Notes: generated from the sequence alone by a model not told the origin. DNA of 36,056 nucleotides from Anaerolineales bacterium UBA6128 (GCA_002423325.1 DIVQ01000208.1:1983-38038); one strand, 5' to 3'. Counted from the stretch's first letter, positions 1,528-18,626 are shown. Numbers and translations: made by a program.

Positions 1528-2229
1528 ATGACGCAGCAAGCGCATCAATTGGCTGTACGCATCAGCAGGACGGTCAAGCTCGACTACTGGCTGCACCTGC
1601 CGGATGGCTATGGTGAGGACGCGTCCGTCTCGTGGCCGCTGATCATCTTTTTGCACGGCATGGGCGAGCGCGGCAGCGATCTGACGCTGGTCAAGAAGCA
1701 TGGCATCCCCAAGGTCGCAGAGCAGGGCCCCGATCTGCCCTTTGTGGCGGTCTCGCCGCAATGCCCGCTCGACTCGGTCTGGACCGATCAAATCGACGCC
1801 CTGGACGCGCTGTACCGCAATATCGCCCGGCACTATGCCATCGACCGCGACCGCGTCTACCTGACGGGGCTGAGCATGGGCGGCTATGGCACTTGGCACT
1901 GGGCGACCTTGCGTCCGCGCCGTTTCGCCGCGATCGTGCCCATCTGCGGGGGGGCCATGGCGCCCTACGGCTACCCTGAGCGCGTCGCGGTGCTCAATGA
2001 TGTGCCGGTGTGGGCCTTTCACGGGGCCAGAGACCAGGTTGTGCCGCTGGCCGAGTCGCAAAAGCTGGTCGACGTGCTGGAGCGTGCGGGTGGCAACGTC
2101 CGCCTGACCGTCTACCCCGAGGCGGGCCACGACGCCTGGACCGAGACCTACGCCAATCCAGAGCTCTACGCCTGGCTGCTGGCGCAGTCGCGTGCCGCGC
2201 GTAGCGGCGCTGGCAGGTCGCGCGGGTGA
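1528..2229 (+). CDS. alpha/beta hydrolase, phospholipase/carboxylesterase (PHB-depolymerase-like esterase) family
   Basis: ATG is preceded by TAAGGAG. Contains 'LIIFLHGMGERG' (oxyanion region), the nucleophile elbow 'GLSMGGYG', 'FHGARDQVVP' (Asp) and 'GHDAW' (His), which together make a catalytic-triad layout. Confidence 0.75.
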   Translation: MTQQAHQLAVRISRTVKLDYWLHLPDGYGEDASVSWPLIIFLHGMGERGSDLTLVKKHGIPKVAEQGPDLPFVAVSPQCPLDSVWTDQIDALDALYRNIARHYAIDRDRVYLTGLSMGGYGTWHWATLRPRRFAAIVPICGGAMAPYGYPERVAVLNDVPVWAFHGARDQVVPLAESQKLVDVLERAGGNVRLTVYPEAGHDAWTETYANPELYAWLLAQSRAARSGAGRSRG

Positions 2230-2972
2230 CGGAGGCCTCACTCGTCAACGGGATCGGGCAACTGCGTGAGCGCTCGCTGCACGCAGCACTCTGCGAGTGG
2301 TGCTGCGAACCCGGCGACGCGCGCGAGGTAGAGATCGACGGCTATCGTATCGACGTGCTGCGCGGCGATCTGCTGATCGAAGTACAGACGGGCAACTTTG
2401 GCGCGTTGCGCGCCAAGCTGTCGCGCCTGCTGCAAACCCATCCTGTCCTGCTCGTGCACCCCATTCCGCTGGCCAAGTGGATCGTGCGGCTGCCCGTGGA
2501 TCCTGATGGCGTCTCGGTGCGGCGCAAGTCTCCCCGCCATGGGCGCGTCACCGACCTGTACGACGAACTGGTGCACATTCCCACGCTGACCACCCACCCG
2601 CGTTTGCAGTTGATGGTGGTGTACATCCGCGAAGAAGAGTACTGGAAGGCGGACGGCAAGGGCAGCTGGCGGCGCAAGGGCGTCAGCATCGTGGACCGCC
2701 GGTTGCTCGAGATAGTGGATACACACACCTTTGGCAGCACCGCGGATCACGCCGCGCTGCTGCCCGAGGGGCTGGATGCGTTCACCGCCCGTGACCTCTC
2801 GCAGGCGCTCAAGATTCGGCTGCCGCAGGCGCGCCGCGTGGTCTATTGCCTGCACAAGATGGGGGAGCTGGAGCAAGACGGCAAACGGGGAAGAGAGCGG
2901 GTGTGGCGAAGGGCGGGCACGCACCGCGATGACAGCGGGAGGCCCGCGTCTACAGTTTCCGCACACCCATAG
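2226..2972 (+). CDS. hypothetical protein; putative PD-(D/E)xK-like (E..D..E-x-Q variant) nuclease-fold N-terminal domain plus C-terminal winged-helix-like domain
   Basis: GTG start overlaps the esterase stop (GTGA at 2226-2229). 'YRIDVLRGDLLIEVQTGNF' resembles the D..ExQ core of CoiA-type restriction-endonuclease-fold proteins. The C-terminal 'FTARDLSQALKIRLPQARRVVYCLHKMGELEQDGKRG' looks like a wHTH. The functional call is inference. Confidence 0.5.
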   Translation: MTEASLVNGIGQLRERSLHAALCEWCCEPGDAREVEIDGYRIDVLRGDLLIEVQTGNFGALRAKLSRLLQTHPVLLVHPIPLAKWIVRLPVDPDGVSVRRKSPRHGRVTDLYDELVHIPTLTTHPRLQLMVVYIREEEYWKADGKGSWRRKGVSIVDRRLLEIVDTHTFGSTADHAALLPEGLDAFTARDLSQALKIRLPQARRVVYCLHKMGELEQDGKRGRERVWRRAGTHRDDSGRPASTVSAHP

Positions 2973-3043
2973 TTGGTAGCACATTCTCATTGCCTTCAGT
3001 CGGGGCTGCACGGAATGCGAGCGCCTCAGCCTAGCGTTTCAGT

Positions 3044-3673
3044 TCACTCTTTTTGCCATTTAAATGGCTCGGTATCAGGATAATCTCTCATATACTCGGT
3101 CATCTCCTCTTTGTTGAGTGCATACCATTCGTCGTATGGGTAACGGCGAAAAAACTCGCCTATGCGCTCTCGAAAATGTTCCTCGGCGATAGTGTTCAAT
3201 CGCCCATGTCTGAAAGACCTAAGGCTTTCCAAGTCCTCACGCGGCACACGGAGTGTCGCTGGAAAATCGACTGCCATCTTGTCCGAGAAGCCGATTTGGG
3301 TACTAGGAGGCAGGTAGAACCACTTTTGGTTTATCCGTGCGTGTTGAGTGAGGATATCCTTCCAACTCTTTGCTTTTTTCGTTTCCTTGCTCTTTCCCTC
3401 CACATCACGAAACTCGCGGATCTCGCAGAGCGTGATATCGCGGCTGCGACGAGCATCACAGTCCTGAGTGGCCACGATTGCCGCTACCACACGTACTGGC
3501 ACAATGATGCTAAGTGGGTCGCGCTGCTCTGCCAGGTCCTGCCATTTCGTAACGCGGCTACCTGTTTCGTCTGCGAGGATGACCTCCTGAAGCGAGATGT
3601 CGATTCTGGGTATCCCAAAGAAGATATCCCCTTGGCGGATTGGGTCGTCCAGATCTGGGAAATCGTAGATCAT
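3044..3673 (-). CDS. hypothetical protein (209 aa), third gene of the low-GC operon; no family recognised
   Basis: I chose ATG at 3673 rather than the ORF-track start at 3712. It is preceded by GGGAGGAGGGTGG and overlaps the upstream stop as ATGA. The product has balanced, charged, globular-looking composition (MIYDFPDLDDPIRQGDIFF..ATQDCD..). GC is about 42-50%. Confidence 0.7.
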   Translation of the reverse strand: MIYDFPDLDDPIRQGDIFFGIPRIDISLQEVILADETGSRVTKWQDLAEQRDPLSIIVPVRVVAAIVATQDCDARRSRDITLCEIREFRDVEGKSKETKKAKSWKDILTQHARINQKWFYLPPSTQIGFSDKMAVDFPATLRVPREDLESLRSFRHGRLNTIAEEHFRERIGEFFRRYPYDEWYALNKEEMTEYMRDYPDTEPFKWQKE

Positions 3674-4050
3674 CCACCCTCCTCCCACTGCATGCCGCGT
3701 TTCGCCTCCCATTCGACGATTTCTGCGCGTTCACGTTCTGCGCGCTCTAGAATGGTCCGAGAGAGAAGTAATGCTGCCGCCCACGAGATCGGTCTTCCGG
3801 ACAATCTAGGGCTTACCCACGTAACTACCGATGCATCGCGTCGCCGTCGCTCCCATGACCACAAGTCGGGAATCGCGGTGGCAGGCGATGCGGCAATACC
3901 GAGGACCACTCCTGCAACCAGCACGAATCGAGGAAGTCGCCAGATGGTATCCGGTCTCGTGACATAGCTCTGGCTCCAGAGGCCTGACGCAGATACATCG
4001 GTCTCAGTCGATCCTATCTGGAGGTCCTTAGTTGCAGAACCGCTACTCAC
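3670..4050 (-). CDS. small hypothetical protein (126 aa) with a predicted transmembrane segment; middle gene of the low-GC operon
   Basis: GTG start at 4050 overlaps the upstream TAG stop (4043-4045) by 8 nt, and its stop overlaps the downstream ATG (ATGA). It has a hydrophobic stretch 'LPRFVLVAGVVLGIAASPATAI' and a charged C-terminus 'ERAERERAEIVEWEAKRG'. There is no internal ATG, and coding status is unverified. Confidence 0.45.
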   Translation of the reverse strand: MSSGSATKDLQIGSTETDVSASGLWSQSYVTRPDTIWRLPRFVLVAGVVLGIAASPATAIPDLWSWERRRRDASVVTWVSPRLSGRPISWAAALLLSRTILERAERERAEIVEWEAKRGMQWEEGG

Positions 4051-4822
4051 CAGAGAACCTCCTTTCCAGTTCGCCTTCTATTAGCTTGAAGAACCAGTCG
4101 TCTGTTAGTTCGTGGGCTTGGTCCAACCACTCCGAGAAGCCATCAGGAAGTGCTGGGATGCTACTATGTGTTGCTTGAACTAGTGTTTCCCATATTAGAG
4201 CTTGTTTTTCCTTGTGATTTCCGACGGCGAATCTCAGAGTCATTAGGCCTCCTGGGCTGTCATTCGGAAAGGAGGCTTGCCAGTTAAAAGCCGCAGGGGT
4301 CTGCCCAACTCGCTCGCCGTCGAACAAAGTATCGGGTAATGAGATGTGGGTATTCATTTTGTCCTTAAGGAATTCAAAAACACTCTCCTGACTGAAATCC
4401 ACGTTCACAGCGTCTATGTAGCGCAGTGTTAGCTCTTGGATCATGAGCTGTTCTTTGGCAGGGTGGGCACTGAATAACCAGTCTACAGCTCTCACGCAAC
4501 GTTCCTTGAAGTCGGTCCAGATATACGCATCGGTTTCATTCACAGTCATCAGGCCCGGACCAACCTGGATGAGTGGCCATCCACCGTCTGAAGTGCGGAA
4601 CCGATGCTGTACCATATGAGCTACCATGGCATCGGGGATTTGGGCGGTTGGCAGCGCCTCGTGGAAGGGATATTCGCCCTCCACCCTTTCTGAAAGACGC
4701 CCAAGCAAGAGCCTGTAGTGCGGATCTTCTTGGATGCCTGGCGTCTTTGAGACAGGCAGTTGCCATTTCACCTCCAGAAGGGCCTCAACCAACGGCTTGT
4801 TCTTCAGGTTTTTCTTTTTCAT
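4043..4822 (-). CDS. TIGR04255-family protein (conserved hypothetical, function unknown); first gene of the low-GC operon
   Basis: ATG at 4822 is preceded by AAGAGGT. The N-terminus 'KNKPLVEALLEVKWQLP' matches my recollection of the TIGR04255 N-terminal signature (x-PL-x-E-x-x-x-E-h-x-F/W), and the length of about 260 aa fits. GC is about 45-52%. Confidence 0.65.
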   Translation of the reverse strand: MKKKNLKNKPLVEALLEVKWQLPVSKTPGIQEDPHYRLLLGRLSERVEGEYPFHEALPTAQIPDAMVAHMVQHRFRTSDGGWPLIQVGPGLMTVNETDAYIWTDFKERCVRAVDWLFSAHPAKEQLMIQELTLRYIDAVNVDFSQESVFEFLKDKMNTHISLPDTLFDGERVGQTPAAFNWQASFPNDSPGGLMTLRFAVGNHKEKQALIWETLVQATHSSIPALPDGFSEWLDQAHELTDDWFFKLIEGELERRFSGE

Positions 4823-4967
4823 TTCAACCTCTTATCTTTGCCAAGTTGCCATCCCAACAGCTTGTGCGCACATAGGGAGGCTTCTCCTTTGCATCACCAC
4901 GCGATCCAGCTCGGGCACCGCCTTATTTCGCATATTCGGCCACCGACCGTAGGCGTTGTTGGCTGCT

Positions 4968-4995
4968 ATCATATATCTGTAGCGTACTTCGTCAA
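4968..4995 (-). promoter_or_regulatory. sigma70-type promoter of the low-GC three-gene operon
   Basis: Minus strand reads TTGACG - 16 nt - TATGAT. It lies about 145 nt upstream of the ATG at 4822. Confidence 0.5.
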
Positions 4996-5086
4996 GCCGA
5001 ATTGCCAAAACGTCAACATGGCACGCCGGCGGACAAAATGCCGTGCCGCCAAGCGGCGACTCGCTGGCCTGACTTGTCCACTCCTT

Positions 5087-6040
5087 CTAGTTCACCACGT
5101 TCTGCGGCTTGCCCGCGGCAAAGGCCTTGATGTTGTCGAGGGTCGTCTGCAGCAGGCGGGCGCGCGCCGAGCGCGTGGCCCACGAGATGTGCGGCGTGAT
5201 GTGGCAGTTGTCCAGCGTGTAGAGCGGGTTGTCCAGCGCGGGCGGCTCCACCTCCAGCACGTCCAGACCGGCGCCGGTGATCGTGCCCGCCTTGAGCGCC
5301 TCGTACAGGTCGTGCTCGTTGATCACGGGTCCGCGGCTGGTGTTGATCAGAAAGGCCGTGGGCTTCATCATGCCCAGCAGGCGCGCGCTGACGAGCCCCT
5401 GGGTCTCGGGCGTCAGCGGCGAGTGCAGCGTGACCACGTCGCTCTGGCTGAACAGCGTGTCGATGTCCACAAAGCAGACGTTGTCGTCGTCGCACTCGCG
5501 CACATAGGCGTCGTAGGCCAGGACCTTCATTCCGGAGGCTTTGGCCAGCACGGCCACCTGGCGTCCGATGCGGCCAAAGCCAAAGATGCCCATCGTCAGT
5601 CCCTCTAGCTCAATGAGCGGATAGTCCCAGTAGCAGAAGGACGTGCTGCGGCTCCAGCGGCCGTCGCGCACGGTCTGCGCGTGATGGGCCACATGCTGGG
5701 TGAACTCGAGCAGGTGCGCAAAGACCATCTGCGCCACCGACTGCGTGCCATAGGTGGGCACGTTGGAGACCGGAATGCCGCGCTCGCGGCACGCTGCCAC
5801 GTCCACGATGTTGTAGCCCGTGGCGAGCACGCTGACAAAGCGCAGCGCGGGCAGCTGCTCCAGCGCCTCGCGGGTGACCAGCACCTTGTTGGTGAGGACC
5901 ACGTCAGCCTCTGCGGCCACGCGGACGACATCCTCGTTCGGCGTGTTGTCATAGATGGCGCATTCCCCGAGCGCACGCAGATCATCCCAGCTCAGGTCGC
6001 CGGGATTCAAGGTGTAGCCATCGAGTACGACAATGTTCAT
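5087..6040 (-). CDS. D-isomer-specific 2-hydroxyacid dehydrogenase (glycerate dehydrogenase/hydroxypyruvate reductase-like)
   Basis: ATG is preceded by AAGGAG. Contains the NAD-binding 'GIFGFGRIGRQVA' and the catalytic region 'NTSRGPVINE..' and 'ITPHISWAT'. The N-terminus 'MNIVVLDGYTLNPGDLSW' is typical of HprA-like enzymes. Confidence 0.85.
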   Translation of the reverse strand: MNIVVLDGYTLNPGDLSWDDLRALGECAIYDNTPNEDVVRVAAEADVVLTNKVLVTREALEQLPALRFVSVLATGYNIVDVAACRERGIPVSNVPTYGTQSVAQMVFAHLLEFTQHVAHHAQTVRDGRWSRSTSFCYWDYPLIELEGLTMGIFGFGRIGRQVAVLAKASGMKVLAYDAYVRECDDDNVCFVDIDTLFSQSDVVTLHSPLTPETQGLVSARLLGMMKPTAFLINTSRGPVINEHDLYEALKAGTITGAGLDVLEVEPPALDNPLYTLDNCHITPHISWATRSARARLLQTTLDNIKAFAAGKPQNVVN

Positions 6041-6102
6041 TGGATTCTCCTTTGCGCCGTCGTGCGATAGATCAGCATCTGTGTCTCTCTCAACTGGCCA
6101 CC

Positions 6103-6131
6103 ATTGTAGAGAAGCGGCGCCCTCCTGACAA
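6103..6131 (-). promoter_or_regulatory. promoter of the 2-hydroxyacid dehydrogenase gene
   Basis: Minus strand reads TTGTCA - 17 nt - TACAAT. Confidence 0.5.
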
Positions 6132-6190
6132 CTGGGCGCGACCGGTAACCGACTGCGCTACAGTCGATCGCAGCGGCTGACGCAGCAGAG

Positions 6191-6219
6191 TTGGCCGCGA
6201 GGCACACGTGCGCTATAAT
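6191..6219 (+). promoter_or_regulatory. promoter of the DUF368 gene
   Basis: TTGGCC - 17 nt - TATAAT. Confidence 0.5.
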
Positions 6220-6278
6220 CGCGCTTTGCAGTCTGTGTCGCGCCGCAGCTCGGCGCTCAGTACGTACCGTGAGGGGAT

Positions 6279-7163
6279 ATGATAAAGCTGCTGGTGTTGG
6301 TCCTCAAGGGCATGGCTTACGGACTCACGCACATCGTGCCCGGCCTGGGCGGCGCGCTGGTGATGATTCTGCTCGGCATCTATGGCCAGTTTGTCGATGC
6401 GGTTGGCAACATCCTGATCAGACGCGACAAGTGGAAGGAATACTTGGCCTTTCTGATCCCTCTGGGCATCGGCATGGTCATCGGCATGGTGGGCTTGGCC
6501 AGATTGATCGATGTGCTGGTGGAACGCTGGCCCGCGCCGACCCAGTTCTTCTTCATGGGGCTGGTGCTGGGTACCGTGCCAACCGTGTTTGCGATGGTCA
6601 AGGGACACAAGCCTACCGTCTGGCGCGTGCTGGCGCTCATCGCGGCGCTGGGATTGGTACTGGCTGTGCGTCTGGTCAAGGTGCCGGCGGACGCGGTCGG
6701 CGCCGCGGCCGATTTCGACACGCCCGTTGGCATTGCCTACAACCTGTTGGCCTCTTTCCTGGGGGGCGCTGCCAGCGTGACGCCGGGGCTGGATGGCTCG
6801 TATGTGCTGCTGCTCATGCGCACGTATAACGCCGCTATCGAGGCGGTGGGTGACCTCGTGCACCTGCGCATCAACTGGGGTTTTCTCGTGTCGTTGGCGG
6901 TTGGGGCAGTGGGGGGCATCGTGCTGTTCAGCAAACTGGTGGACACGGCCCTGCGCCGTGCGCCCGGGGTGGCGAGCTATGCCATTCTTGGACTGGTGGT
7001 CGGGGCGTTGTACGGGCTCTGGCCCGATAGTCTGGGCGGGGTCAACGTCGCGGCCTGTGTGCTGGCGTTCGCCGCAGGGGCGGTGGCAGCCTGGCTGCTG
7101 GGTCGCGCCACTCCGCAGGAGCCATCTGCGACGTCGGATGAGGCCGGCGCGCCTACGGCGTAG
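6279..7163 (+). CDS. DUF368 family membrane protein (family linked to undecaprenyl-phosphate translocation)
   Basis: 'GLTHIVPGLGGALVMILLGIY' and a second 'SVTPGLDGSYVLLLM' repeat match the duplicated PG-x-SG/G motif of DUF368. The protein is polytopic and hydrophobic. Confidence 0.75.
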   Translation: MIKLLVLVLKGMAYGLTHIVPGLGGALVMILLGIYGQFVDAVGNILIRRDKWKEYLAFLIPLGIGMVIGMVGLARLIDVLVERWPAPTQFFFMGLVLGTVPTVFAMVKGHKPTVWRVLALIAALGLVLAVRLVKVPADAVGAAADFDTPVGIAYNLLASFLGGAASVTPGLDGSYVLLLMRTYNAAIEAVGDLVHLRINWGFLVSLAVGAVGGIVLFSKLVDTALRRAPGVASYAILGLVVGALYGLWPDSLGGVNVAACVLAFAAGAVAAWLLGRATPQEPSATSDEAGAPTA

Positions 7164-14509: not shown

Positions 14510-17500
14510 TTGCTGATTAACGCGATACTGCATGGCACCTGGATACCGGCTGATGGCTCGGAGGGCCAGCCCTTTTTTGTCTGGGCCGAGCGTTCGGCCG
14601 AACAGGTGCGCGCGCACCCCGGCAGCCCCCGCATCCAGCGACACCCCTACGCGGCCACGACTATCGAGATCGCGCACTTGCTCGACACCTACATGCCGGA
14701 CTCGGATTGGCGCAGCGCCGAACGCCTGACGCGGATCGTGTTGTTGCCTTCAACCGACAGAGCTCCGGTGATGCCCGGCTGGCTGGTGGAGGATGATATC
14801 CCCGAGCCGGGCGAGGTAGGTCTTGTGCCGTGGCGCGTCGAGGGCATTGGCGTGTCGGTGCTCGAGGTGCTCGATGTGCTAGCCGCGCTGCCGCTCGAAC
14901 AGACGCAGCCCAGGACGCAACGCGGCGTGGGCGCCGACCTGCGCTACTGGGGACTGGTCGCAAAGTTTGCGCTTGAGCTCCTGGCGCGGCAACGCTACCT
15001 TCCCGGACTGCGTGCGATGGACGAGGGCATTCATGCCGTCTGGCAGCCTGTGCTGGACGATCCTGACGACGCCGCGCGCGTGGCGACGCTGGCCAGAGGC
15101 ATGCCGCCAGCCTGTCGCGCGCTGTTGCGTGAGGGCGCCGACACCAGCGAGGCCAGCCTGCCCCCTGCTGAAGAGGTGTTGCTGAGCTTTCTCGAGCAAC
15201 TCGTTGATCACGCCGTGAGAGACTGGACCCGCCCGGCGAACGGCTCTGGCGTGCGCACTTGGGACCGACTCCTCAGTCGCACCGGGACCGGTCTGGCCGA
15301 AACCTGGTGGCGGGCGCTCTGGTCCGAAAAGCGACTGGTTGAGGCCCCCGGCAATCGCGCCGATGTGGGGCGCTTTTACCAGAGCTGGCAGAGCTGGACG
15401 CTGCGCGCGCGCCCTGCCGCCGACGTCGCCTTTCGGCTCTGCTTCCGGCTGGAGCCCCCCGACACCAATGATGTAGGCGAGACGACGCCCAACTGGACGC
15501 TGCACTATTTCTTGCAGGCCAGGGACGACCCCAGCCTGATGGTGCCGGCGCGGGACGTGTGGCACGAGCGGGGCAACGTGCTCAACTATCTGAACCGGCG
15601 CTTTGACCGGCCCCAGGAGACGTTGCTCGCTGGGCTGGGGATGGCCGCGCGCCTGTGCCCGGCCATCCAGCGCAGTCTGCGCTCCGAATGTCCAGAAGAG
15701 GCCACGATGTCTCCGCAAGAGGCCTACACCTTTTTGCGTGAGACGGCGCGCTTGCTCGAGGGTACCGGGTTTGGCGTGCTGGTGCCGCCCTGGTGGAACA
15801 AGCCTGATACACGCCTGCGCGTGCGCGCGCGGCTGCAGGCGGGCGGCGGCATCGAGGGCTCGGGCATCCTCAGCATGGATTCGCTGGTAGCCTACGACTG
15901 GGAACTGGCGCTGGGTGATGAGCCTCTCAGCCGCGAGGAATTCGAACGCCTCGCGGCGCTCAAGACGCCGCTGGTGCGCGTGCGTGGACGTTGGGTGCTG
16001 CTGCAGCCCGATCAGGTAGAGGCGGCCATCGCCTTCTGGGAGCGCCAGCGCGCCCAGAACCAGTTGCCCTTGCGCGATGCGTTGGGCTTGATGCTGGGTA
16101 CACAGACCGAGATCGACGGTCTGGACGTGACCGAGGTGAAACTCGATTCGGTGCTGCAGGACCTGATGGAGGCCCTGACGCGTGGCGAGCGCCTTGAGAC
16201 GCTGCCGCCGCCGCCCGGGTTCGTCGGCCAATTGCGGCCTTACCAGGTACGCGGCTACTCCTGGCTGGCGTTCCTGCAGCGCTGGGGCTTTGGCGCCTGT
16301 CTGGCTGATGACATGGGCCTGGGCAAGACAATCCAGGCCATTGCGCTGCTGTTGCACGATGCCGACCGGCAGCCCGACGGGCAGCCTTCGCTGGTCATCT
16401 GCCCCACTTCAGTGGTGGGGAACTGGCAGCGCGAGGTGGCGCGCTTTGGTCCCGACCTGCGCGTGATGGTGCATCATGGCGCTGGGCGGGCAGAGGGCGC
16501 CGGTTTTGTGGCGCAGACGCAGCAGAATGATCTCGTGATCAGCACCTATGGCTTGGTGCGGCGGGATATCAAAGATCTGACGCGGGTGCATTGGCGCAAC
16601 ATCATCCTGGATGAAGCGCAGAACATCAAAAATCCGCTGACCAAGCAGGCGCGCGCGGTGCGGCAATTGCTGGGAAGCAACCGCATCGCCCTGACGGGCA
16701 CGCCGATCGAAAACCACCTCACCGAACTATGGTCGATCCTCTCGTTTCTCAATCCGGGCTACCTGGGCAGTAACGACAGCTTTCGACGCAAATTCGCGCT
16801 GCCCATTGAGCGCTATCAGGATCAGACGGCCGCCGAACGTCTGCGAACATTGGTGCGACCCTTTGTGCTGCGACGACTCAAGACCGATCCGCTGGTCATC
16901 CAGGACCTGCCGGACAAGTTCGAGTCCAAGGTATACTGCAACCTGACGCGCGAGCAGGCGACTCTGTATGAGGCGGTGGTGCGCGACGCGATGGAAGCGC
17001 TGCGTGCCGTGGACCACGATGGGACCCCGATTCAACGTCGTGGCATCGTGCTGGCGATGCTGACGCGGCTCAAGCAAGTCTGCAACCACCCCACCCTCTA
17101 TCTGGGCGATGGCTCAGAGACGACGGGGCGCTCCGGCAAGCTGAATCGCCTGTGCGAGATGCTCGAGGAGGCGCTGGCCGTGGGCGACCGCGCGCTGATT
17201 TTCACACAGTTTGCGCAAATGGGCTTCCTGCTGCAGCGTCACTTGCGTGAGACGTTTGGCCAGGATGTGTTCCTGCTGCATGGCGGCACGCCGCAGAAAC
17301 AGCGCGATCGCATGCTGCAGGCGTTCCAAGAGCAGCCGGACTCACCGGCGTTGTTCGTGCTGTCACTCAAGGCGGGCGGCACGGGCCTGAACCTGATGCG
17401 CGCGAACCACGTCTTTCACTATGATCGCTGGTGGAACCCGGCGGTGGAGAATCAGGCCACGGACCGCGCCTACCGCATCGGGCAGACGCGCGATGTTCAG

Positions 17501-17677
17501 GTGCACAAGTTCATCTGCCTGGGCACGCTCGAGGAGCGCATCGACATGCTCATCGAGAGCAAGAGCGCCCTGGCCGAGAGCGTGGTGGGCGTGGGCGAAG
17601 AGAGCGTTACAGAGCTGAGTACAGACGAGCTGTACGACCTGCTGGCGCTGCGTAGGGAAGCGGTGGAGACGAGCTAG
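14510..17677 (+). CDS. SNF2-family DEAD/DEAH-box helicase with a long N-terminal SNF2-associated region
   Basis: TTG start is preceded by TGGAG. Helicase motifs present: 'LADDMGLGKT' (I), 'ILDEAQNIKN' (II), 'LTGTPIEN' (III) and 'QATDRAYRIGQ' (VI). About 600 aa lie N-terminal to the ATPase core. Confidence 0.9.
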   Translation: MLINAILHGTWIPADGSEGQPFFVWAERSAEQVRAHPGSPRIQRHPYAATTIEIAHLLDTYMPDSDWRSAERLTRIVLLPSTDRAPVMPGWLVEDDIPEPGEVGLVPWRVEGIGVSVLEVLDVLAALPLEQTQPRTQRGVGADLRYWGLVAKFALELLARQRYLPGLRAMDEGIHAVWQPVLDDPDDAARVATLARGMPPACRALLREGADTSEASLPPAEEVLLSFLEQLVDHAVRDWTRPANGSGVRTWDRLLSRTGTGLAETWWRALWSEKRLVEAPGNRADVGRFYQSWQSWTLRARPAADVAFRLCFRLEPPDTNDVGETTPNWTLHYFLQARDDPSLMVPARDVWHERGNVLNYLNRRFDRPQETLLAGLGMAARLCPAIQRSLRSECPEEATMSPQEAYTFLRETARLLEGTGFGVLVPPWWNKPDTRLRVRARLQAGGGIEGSGILSMDSLVAYDWELALGDEPLSREEFERLAALKTPLVRVRGRWVLLQPDQVEAAIAFWERQRAQNQLPLRDALGLMLGTQTEIDGLDVTEVKLDSVLQDLMEALTRGERLETLPPPPGFVGQLRPYQVRGYSWLAFLQRWGFGACLADDMGLGKTIQAIALLLHDADRQPDGQPSLVICPTSVVGNWQREVARFGPDLRVMVHHGAGRAEGAGFVAQTQQNDLVISTYGLVRRDIKDLTRVHWRNIILDEAQNIKNPLTKQARAVRQLLGSNRIALTGTPIENHLTELWSILSFLNPGYLGSNDSFRRKFALPIERYQDQTAAERLRTLVRPFVLRRLKTDPLVIQDLPDKFESKVYCNLTREQATLYEAVVRDAMEALRAVDHDGTPIQRRGIVLAMLTRLKQVCNHPTLYLGDGSETTGRSGKLNRLCEMLEEALAVGDRALIFTQFAQMGFLLQRHLRETFGQDVFLLHGGTPQKQRDRMLQAFQEQPDSPALFVLSLKAGGTGLNLMRANHVFHYDRWWNPAVENQATDRAYRIGQTRDVQVHKFICLGTLEERIDMLIESKSALAESVVGVGEESVTELSTDELYDLLALRREAVETS

Positions 17678-17678
17678 T

Positions 17679-18626
17679 ATGGTGCGCAAGGGCAAGCAGC
17701 AACAGAGTAACGAGCCGTTCTGGGTGCACGAACGCACCGACCCGATCCCGGTCATCGGAGGCCTGCGGGCGCGCAGCCAGCGCGGCGCCTTTACACAGAC
17801 CTGGTGGGCGACGGCGTGGGAGCAAGCGCTGCTGAGCTGGATCGACGCCGGCCGGCTGAGTCGTGGCAAGACGTATGCTCGGCGCGGCCAGGTGGTTGAA
17901 CTCGAGATCCATCCGGGCCAGGTGCTCGCGCGCGTGCAGGGCTCGCGCCCCACGCCTTACCGGCTGCGGATCGCGATCCAGCCGTTCAGCGATGCGGAGT
18001 GGGCGCGCGTGGTGGACAGCCTGTCGCAGCAGGCGGGCTACAGCGCAATGCTGCTCAACGGACAAATGCCCCGCGAGATCGAGCGGTTGTTTGACGATCT
18101 GGGGCTTTCGCTATTCCCCAGTGCCGAGTCCGACGTGCTGATGGCCTGCTCGTGCCCGGATGGCGACGCGGCCTGTAAGCACCTTGCGGCGGTGCTGTTG
18201 CTGGTGGGCGAACGCCTCGACCTCGACCCCTTTCTGCTCTTTGTGTTGCGAGGCCGCACGCGTGACCAAGTGGTCCAGGCCCTGCGCGAGCGACGGGCAG
18301 ACCGGCTCGAGTTGGCGAGCGACAGCGAACGGGTGGTTGAGCAGCCGTTGTACGAGGACGAGCCTGTGCACAGCAGCGGCATAGACCTCGAGCGGTTCTG
18401 GCAGCCCGGCCCGGAGCTGGCCGCTCTGCAGATCAGGGTGCGGCCGCCCGAAGTCTCGCACGAGGTACTGCAAGTGCTGGGCGAGCCCGGCTTTGCCCAG
18501 GACACCCCCATGCAGGATCGGCTGATGCGCGTCTATGACGCGGTGACGGAGCGAGCCCTGGAGGTAGCCTTTGAGGAGCCCCCCGAGTCCGCTCCCGAGA
18601 ACGGCGGCGCTGATAACGGCCAGTAG
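17679..18626 (+). CDS. SWIM zinc-finger domain protein
   Basis: ATG lies 1 nt after the SNF2 stop. 'CSCPDGDAACKHLAAVLL' matches the SWIM C-x-C-x(n)-C-x-H signature. Confidence 0.85.
   Translation: MVRKGKQQQSNEPFWVHERTDPIPVIGGLRARSQRGAFTQTWWATAWEQALLSWIDAGRLSRGKTYARRGQVVELEIHPGQVLARVQGSRPTPYRLRIAIQPFSDAEWARVVDSLSQQAGYSAMLLNGQMPREIERLFDDLGLSLFPSAESDVLMACSCPDGDAACKHLAAVLLLVGERLDLDPFLLFVLRGRTRDQVVQALRERRADRLELASDSERVVEQPLYEDEPVHSSGIDLERFWQPGPELAALQIRVRPPEVSHEVLQVLGEPGFAQDTPMQDRLMRVYDAVTERALEVAFEEPPESAPENGGADNGQ

Follow-up and report, generated by a model that had tools for sequence, protein, structure and literature searches.

The toxins of the MazEF, Kis-Kid (PemIK) and CcdAB modules share one fold, an SH3-like barrel with a C-terminal helix. 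The catalytic residues of MazF are an arginine at the start of strand 2 (R29) and a threonine or serine at the end of strand 3 (T52). The type III toxins ToxN, AbiQ and CptN have the same fold and are inhibited by repeat RNA antitoxins. TAC systems, to which the concept of chaperone addiction belongs, consist of three genes with SecB encoded last. PMC13069673 refers to tripartite systems in which a chaperone stabilises the antitoxin, and a MazF-like protein, GajC, has recently been reported there from type II Gabija. The recruitment of extra nuclease effectors inside BREX loci is described in PMC12839542, a large survey of BREX.

The gene described here, C, was found on a stretch of 36,056 nt from Anaerolineales bacterium UBA6128, the whole of which is called the window, together with two further genes, A and B. 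As in MazEF, Kis-Kid and CcdAB, a product with the MazF/Kid/CcdB toxin fold is predicted by modelling, but C has no sequence similarity to these toxins, is twice as large as they are, carries two insertions and a conserved tail, and keeps different invariant residues, including a cysteine. Its partner B differs from theirs in having no AbrB- or RHH-type DNA-binding domain, and a third gene, of the TIGR04255 family, leads the operon in 78 of 88 testable loci. Unlike the type III systems, the element upstream of C is a protein-coding gene under purifying selection (omega of about 0.2) and no repeat array. With TAC the cassette has in common that there are three genes, one pair of which is TA-like, and that B has an extra hydrophobic region which is present together with the third protein and missing where that protein is lost, a parallel to chaperone addiction. 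It differs from TAC in that the third protein belongs to TIGR04255 instead of SecB (no SecB match in Pfam) and is encoded first.

GajC, as reported in PMC13069673, is a precedent for a variant in which C is fused to a coiled coil and accompanied by HerA. The likeness is one of description, and GajC is partnered by GajB, a UvrD-type helicase, whereas the partner of C is HerA or TIGR04255. Like the auxiliary effectors in PMC12839542, A-B-C lies inside BREX operons at four loci (L001-L004), between PglX and PglZ or PglX and BrxHI. MazF, PemK and CcdB have 0 occurrences each in the main text of PMC12839542, the supplements of which may name the family otherwise. A description of the TIGR04255-B-C cassette was not found in the literature searched.

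The A-B-C cassette in the window

C is the last of three overlapping, co-directional genes in a low-GC cassette of about 2 kb, and its position as terminal gene of a cassette had been correctly seen in the original prediction. The features of the region are as follows.

4968..4995, minus strand: sigma-70-like promoter match TTGACG-16-TATGAT, 10/12, about 146 nt upstream of A
4043..4822, minus strand: gene A, 259 aa, TIGR04255 family, leads the cassette; third component, putatively sensor- or chaperone-like
4058..4063, minus strand: Shine-Dalgarno sequence of B, AGGAGG, 7 nt ahead of the GTG at 4050
3670..4050, minus strand: gene B, 126 aa, GTG start; putative antitoxin
3677..3686, minus strand: Shine-Dalgarno sequence of C, GGGAGGAGGG, with its GGAGG core 7 nt ahead of the ATG at 3673
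3044..3673, minus strand: gene C, 209 aa plus stop, predicted MazF/Kid/CcdB-type fold; putative toxin/effector
2980..5050, no strand: low-GC island (dip about 2800-5200), 49-58% GC against 62-69% in the flanks, with only A-B-C inside

The open reading frame proposed at exactly 3044-3673 is real. Its strand, which had not been given, is the minus strand, and the four peptides quoted from it (IRQGDIFFGIP, AAIVATQDCDARRSRD, HARINQKWFYLPP and EEHFRERIGEFFRRYPYDEWY) are all found in the translation of gene C. The longest reading of the frame in the ORF list starts at ATG 3712 and has 222 aa. The product of 209 aa was considered the right one because of the strong GGGAGGAGGG ribosome-binding site, the overlap of its ATG with the TGA of B (ATGA, 3673-3670) and the MIY... 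N-terminus of the C homologues. The frame is coding far beyond chance, with E-values of 1e-116 for the closest homologues and a dN of 0.14-0.20 against five relatives, synonymous sites being saturated. Antisense to C and B, a 304-aa ORF without Pfam match is present at 3053-3967 on the plus strand, probably as an antisense artefact of GC-rich DNA. That this frame, which does exist opposite C, should be the real gene and the minus-strand ORF spurious is hardly conceivable: it has no Pfam match, other long antisense ORFs occur elsewhere in the same GC-rich window, and it is the minus frame that has about 1000 homologues, a confident fold, a Shine-Dalgarno sequence and a low dN with saturated dS.

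Gene A matched the TIGR04255 profile of NCBIfam with an E-value of 2.5e-34 and 119.2 bits (cut-off 30) over profile positions 2-251 of 252. It has a duplicated alpha/beta fold without a clear solved relative, and a PDB sequence search with A yielded chance-level rows only. A and B overlap by 8 nt. Neither the PADLOC models nor PHROGs gave a match to A, B or C. The promoter match upstream of A is weak evidence, with 2 sites found against 1.3 expected, and a scan for intrinsic terminators between 2850 and 5150 found none.

The low-GC island is flanked by a convergent 248-aa ORF and by a 2-hydroxyacid dehydrogenase gene. The 248-aa ORF (2226-2972, plus strand), which converges on C, has a host-like GC content and no match in Pfam, NCBIfam or PADLOC. 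The search for direct repeats flanking the island gave only short, chance-like pairs, and in 2700-5400 the repeats were limited to short imperfect two-copy elements (12-22 nt), with no array adjoining C. The rest of the window consists of housekeeping genes for an ABC-2 transporter, a hydrolase, dehydrogenases, a GH38 mannosidase and an H+-pyrophosphatase. A SNF2 helicase with DUF3670 (1055 aa) is encoded at 14510-18623 on the plus strand, followed 4 nt later by a 315-aa ORF without family.

C was found in none of the 40 related genomes searched, of which 24 are from the same family and 16 from the same class. This result and the GC dip suggest that the cassette was acquired recently by horizontal transfer, and the placing of C in an accessory region agrees with both observations.

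Family and predicted fold of C

C had been presented as an orphan protein, a label that does not stand. In a word-seeded search, 994 of 1080 candidate proteins matched C at E≤1e-3, and exhaustive HMMER searching of 1.84 billion representatives gave 255 C-family clusters (50% identity) at E≤1e-3, 85 of them at E≤1e-30. Among the 120 matches listed, identity to C was 66-83% over the full length; sources, where named, were Thermoleophilia, Armatimonadetes, Planctomycetes, Chitinivibrionales and Candidatus Electronema. By homology, C belongs to a large, cross-phylum, unnamed family. The accompanying remark that no family could be named holds for the curated sets, with no match to C in Pfam, NCBIfam, PADLOC or PHROGs. 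The homologues from the word-seeded search carried no Pfam domain, the ESM Atlas search with C gave unnamed clusters only, and the PDB sequence search with the C profile chance-level rows only. Four sequencing runs had a match, all of them DNA runs from one study; among the runs listed there was no RNA run.

In an alignment of 88 family members, G15, D16 and C72 are invariant, and at least 90% conservation was observed for Q14, I17, P22, I66, Q70, D73, Y120, L121, P122, F137, R155, L159, H166, R168, R177, W183, Y184, E190, Y194 and Q207. The QGD and QxCD motifs, already singled out in the original prediction, are the most conserved features of the family and, because they are conserved across this alignment, were considered the core of a real family.

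Structure prediction and structure searching, both of which had been suggested for this protein, gave a confident model with MazF-type toxins as the top matches. The AF2 model, computed from the 88-member alignment, had a pLDDT of 96.2 and a pTM of 0.85, in agreement with the earlier impression of a genuine globular protein. All listed top Foldseek matches in the PDB were MazF or MazF-family toxins (MoxT, YdcE, 'mRNA interferase'), with a best E-value of 8e-4 and TM-scores by target of 0.6-0.74; in the viral library BFVD the matches were PemK-like proteins, none of them at E≤0.001. The model shows the barrel and C-terminal helix of the MazF/Kid/CcdB superfamily, superposable over the whole toxin chain, and C is predicted to have the SH3-like barrel of these toxins. 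Its kind is recognisable after all, although a curated family name is lacking. Compared with the MazF chain, C has about 60 additional residues (about 25-59 and 88-117 by the secondary structure of the model) and a conserved C-terminal stretch of 30 residues; these are regarded as insertions and a tail because the structural match spans the entire toxin chain.

The profile of PemK/MazF (Pfam PF02452) gave no match to C at E≤1, and hhalign of the 88 C-family sequences with 35 MazF-family sequences (an alignment centred on E. coli MazF) gave a probability of 1.1%. As judged from these profile comparisons, C falls outside the PemK/MazF family. A canonical PemK was not found in the window's own genome, which is 81% complete. 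By eye only, C has in common with the MazF consensus GD[IV][FW] on strand 1 and, after the hydrophobic strand 2, a polar turn. The original layout of GDI, a hydrophobic strand and QxCD, associated at the time with uncharacterised proteins, bears to that extent a by-eye resemblance to the GD[IV]W strand and the strand 2 and polar turn of the MazF family.

R29 and T52 are invariant in the alignment of the E. coli MazF family. In C (n=88), position 61, the by-eye equivalent of the arginine at the start of strand 2, is variable, and position 81 is mostly serine or threonine without being invariant, its correspondence to MazF also being by eye. Because R29 and T52 have no clear counterpart and the invariant residues of C include a cysteine, two other modes of action were kept under consideration. 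According to the first, C would be a toxin on the MazF/CcdB scaffold but act as a thiol hydrolase or transferase (C72 with H166 and D16 or D73) on a protein or nucleotide target. The invariance of C72, the conservation of D73, Q70, H166 and R168 at 90% or more (n=88), the absence of a recognisable MazF Arg/Thr pair, and QxCD in distant relatives (ISQDCD in L118, L122 and L144, SQSCD in L130) are consistent with such an enzyme. On the other hand, C72 could be structural, and thiol enzymes do not occur in the descriptions of the matched chains, whether of MazF/Kid/CcdB or of type III toxins; we consider this activity unlikely. According to the second, considered improbable, C would be a non-enzymatic poison like CcdB that binds and blocks DNA gyrase or another cellular machine.

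Coupling of B and C and variants of the cassette

The cassette was compared across 114 loci, 34 from species-representative genomes and 80 from metagenomes, the latter being the best 80 of 340 relatives and therefore close ones only (57-83% identity). A, B and C were scored with HMMs built from their own alignments; some of the loci are duplicates of each other, so that the counts below are not independent.

The N-terminal part of B is variable and is followed by a hydrophobic segment (residues 42-60); the conserved part is a helix at the C-terminus, the B-core. The B-core is one long helix of about residues 84-124, the last 45 or so, with the consensus GRxISRxEALRIARxILExAERERxxxAExEAxRGIQWE. 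For B no match was obtained in Pfam, NCBIfam, PADLOC or by PDB sequence search, and no antitoxin domain was recognisable, nor a DNA-binding domain such as type II antitoxins use to autoregulate. The B-core HMM matched directly upstream of C in 110 of the 112 loci with at least 150 nt of upstream sequence, and the same small ORF is visible by eye in the two loci that were missed (L025 and L030), giving 112/112. The stop of B and the start of C overlap by 4 nt in 88 of 110 loci. C has in this way a small, co-directional, overlapping partner gene adjoining it and conserved across relatives, as is found in type II TA modules.

Gene A, scored in the 88 loci with at least 1150 nt upstream, is full-length in 78, a remnant in two and absent in eight. 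At L016 (5508-6433) and L017 (5711-6636), a deletion comprises A residues 51-259 and B residues 1-83; A residues 1-50 are joined in frame to B residues 84-124, and the B-core stands directly ahead of an intact C. L095, L091 and L107 are two-gene forms in which the B-core has a different N-terminus. That of the L095 partner matched nothing in Pfam or NCBIfam, and an apparent likeness to a small swapped-hairpin antitoxin domain was dropped on this account. In six Acidobacteriota loci (L025, L026, L028, L029, L030 and L031), only a B-core of 63-74 aa is present, followed by a fusion of C to a coiled coil (393-433 aa with a tail of about 220 aa, frameshifted in L029). Directly after this fusion, an ORF of 565-567 aa was found in four of the six (L025, L026, L028 and L029; the L025 variant spans 4128-7154). 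The ORFs of L025 and L028 encode HerA (Pfam DUF87, E-values of 9e-40 and 3e-41; PADLOC HerA, 1.9e-47 for L025), and those of L026 and L029 were called HerA by N-terminal likeness to these two. L030 and L031 have the fusion without HerA. No HerA-like ORF occurs within the A-B-C island of the window, the pairing with HerA being seen only in variant loci. From the deletion, the two-gene forms and the HerA-linked exceptions, it follows that the constant unit is B-core plus C, and that A and the N-terminal half of B are gained or lost as a pair.

Two loci depart from this arrangement in single details. L009 speaks against the coupling: its B-core is interrupted by a frameshift of one base (5930-6004), although C is intact. 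As the remaining helix is readable in another frame, this may well be an assembly indel. At L012 (183-1280), on a contig of 2.2 kb, A and B form one ORF of 365 aa with a duplicated IAGIRRIGQV stretch, either a real fusion or a misassembly.

Residues 42-60 of B (window 3871-3927, minus strand) form the hydrophobic stretch FVLVAGVVLGIAASPATAI, with a Kyte-Doolittle value of 2.17 and a conserved DPW-type motif after it. The hydropathy of this middle segment is 1.6 or higher, as in a membrane helix, in 14 of 32 homologues. It might insert in the membrane as a helix, be buried in an interface with A, or act as an 'addiction' segment prone to aggregation, and B may be something other than a classic soluble antitoxin. 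Complex prediction for C and B, run without controls, gave a score of 0.01 (mark 0.32) and bears on binding in neither direction.

Against the five relatives, dN was 0.14-0.20 for C, 0.18-0.41 for A and 0.32-0.56 for B. Omega was about 0.12 for A and 0.20-0.23 for B at L001 and L004, where dS could be estimated; dS of C was saturated. All three genes are coding and under purifying selection, C being the most constrained and B the least. A slowly evolving toxin with a fast antitoxin is the usual asymmetry, and the rates of C and B fit it.

The neighbourhood of the cassette was inspected at the 34 loci from species-representative genomes. At L001, L003 and L004 it is inserted in a BREX operon, with PglX on one side and PglZ on the other, and at L002 between PglX and BrxHI, with PglZ next (PADLOC, E=0 for PglX and PglZ). 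At L005 and L010 it is placed between HmaA and HmaB; at L019 an HmaA-like fragment precedes it and a dynamin-like GTPase follows. An IetA/IetS defence pair is located a few kb from the cassette at L016 and L017. Genes for integrases, recombinases or transposases flank it at L011, L020 and L021, and a Bro-N gene at L034. The remaining genome loci have ordinary neighbours, as in the window. No relatives of C were found on plasmid records, phage records or IMG/VR viral contigs at the sensitivity used, which is unusual for classical addiction modules. The cassette is sporadic, low in GC and horizontally moving, and in some genomes it lies inside or beside defence systems.

These neighbourhoods also bear on whether C is a toxin at all. 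The cassette might instead be a regulatory or metabolic module, in which C would be an adaptor binding nucleic acid or protein that merely shares the SH3-like barrel. Such a role would suit the ordinary housekeeping neighbours at most of the 34 genome loci, A having no assignable function and no defence or TA profile matching A, B or C. We rate an adaptor role as unlikely.

TIGR04255 cassettes and a proposed mode of action

TIGR04255 is curated as 'sporadically distributed', without a function, and is mentioned in none of about 8.4 million full texts. In the phylum of the window it was present in 27 of 301 sampled genomes (26 of 300 with one genome left out). Twenty-eight TIGR04255 loci (of L118-L146) were examined, the window and one other locus being left out. 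In at least 23 of the 28, the TIGR04255 gene is followed on the same strand by a gene of 110-340 aa at a distance of -80 to +40 nt, usually with a third gene directly after it. The window's own genome contains a second copy of TIGR04255 on another contig (L145, G000:C113:22227-22949), inside a 403-aa open frame and followed by a 128-aa ORF without family.

The third genes are of several kinds. That of L130 encodes a distant relative of C (hhalign 93.8%, E-value of 1.8e-7) with an SQSCD motif, and that of L121 was matched by the C HMM (E-value of 5e-4). Those of L118, L119, L122 and L144 have a motif of the ISQDCD type, and their alignment to C has a probability of 67% (E-value of 5e-5), so that QxCD is retained in distant relatives, as ISQDCD in L118, L122 and L144. 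The third gene of L124 encodes a HEPN protein above the Pfam cut-off, and L123 one below it. Others encode proteins of about 140-160 aa that begin ...ILYRR... and form an unnamed family, or are of further types; an ESM Atlas search with the third gene of another TIGR04255 cassette gave unnamed clusters only. Some of the middle genes in the distant C-like cassettes are HTH or Xre/ParS-like, those of L118, L119 and L144 matching the NCBI Xre/ParS antitoxin model with E-values of 1e-5 to 1e-10, well below its cut-off. TIGR04255 thus seems to be a frequent first gene of cassettes in which antitoxin-like and toxin-like genes are interchangeable.

For the cassette of the window, the favoured reading, to which we lean with some reserve, is that C is a divergent toxin of the MazF fold, probably an RNase, neutralised by the helix of B, with A as a third component resembling a sensor or a chaperone. 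We are more confident of the fold and the cassette than of this TA or defence reading as a whole, and less confident of the RNase chemistry. The original prediction had offered effector or sensor as the role of C; effector is the better guess, and the role of sensor would fit A (TIGR04255) better.

According to the favoured reading, the B-core helix would bind and neutralise C in the manner of the C-terminal parts of MazE, Kis and CcdA. A would act through the N-terminal hydrophobic half of B, a proposal made because the two co-occur and are lost together, and might either set the stability of B or sense a trigger, for instance phage infection or loss of the element. Upon titration or degradation of B, free C would arrest the cell, most likely by RNA cleavage. 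RNA cleavage is proposed because most known proteins of this fold act in this way; the step is an assumption and the weakest part of the scheme. The active site would differ from the Arg/Thr pair of MazF, with D16, Q70, C72, D73, R155, H166 and R168 as candidate residues.

More tentatively, and on balance doubtful, the TIGR04255 sensor or chaperone would be the shared first part of a widespread, undescribed three-gene class of toxin or defence systems, with a swappable antitoxin-like middle gene and a toxin drawn from the C family, its distant QxCD relatives, HEPN proteins or at least one unnamed family. C would then represent a separate, new branch of the MazF/CcdB fold, having an active site of its own of the Cys/His/Asp type, and HerA ATPases as well as BREX and Hma loci would have captured it too.

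Should C prove toxic and be neutralised by B, a large, cross-phylum family would be added to the MazF/CcdB toxin superfamily. The C family is missed entirely by sequence methods, and current annotation pipelines for TA and defence systems are blind to it. The full A-B-C cassette, the deletion form with B-core and C, the two-gene forms and the HerA-linked fusion make up a natural series that offers a ready dissection of the parts. Its position inside BREX and Hma operons makes the cassette a candidate second-line (abortive) effector there and, if true, the proposed scheme would provide the first functional handle on TIGR04255.
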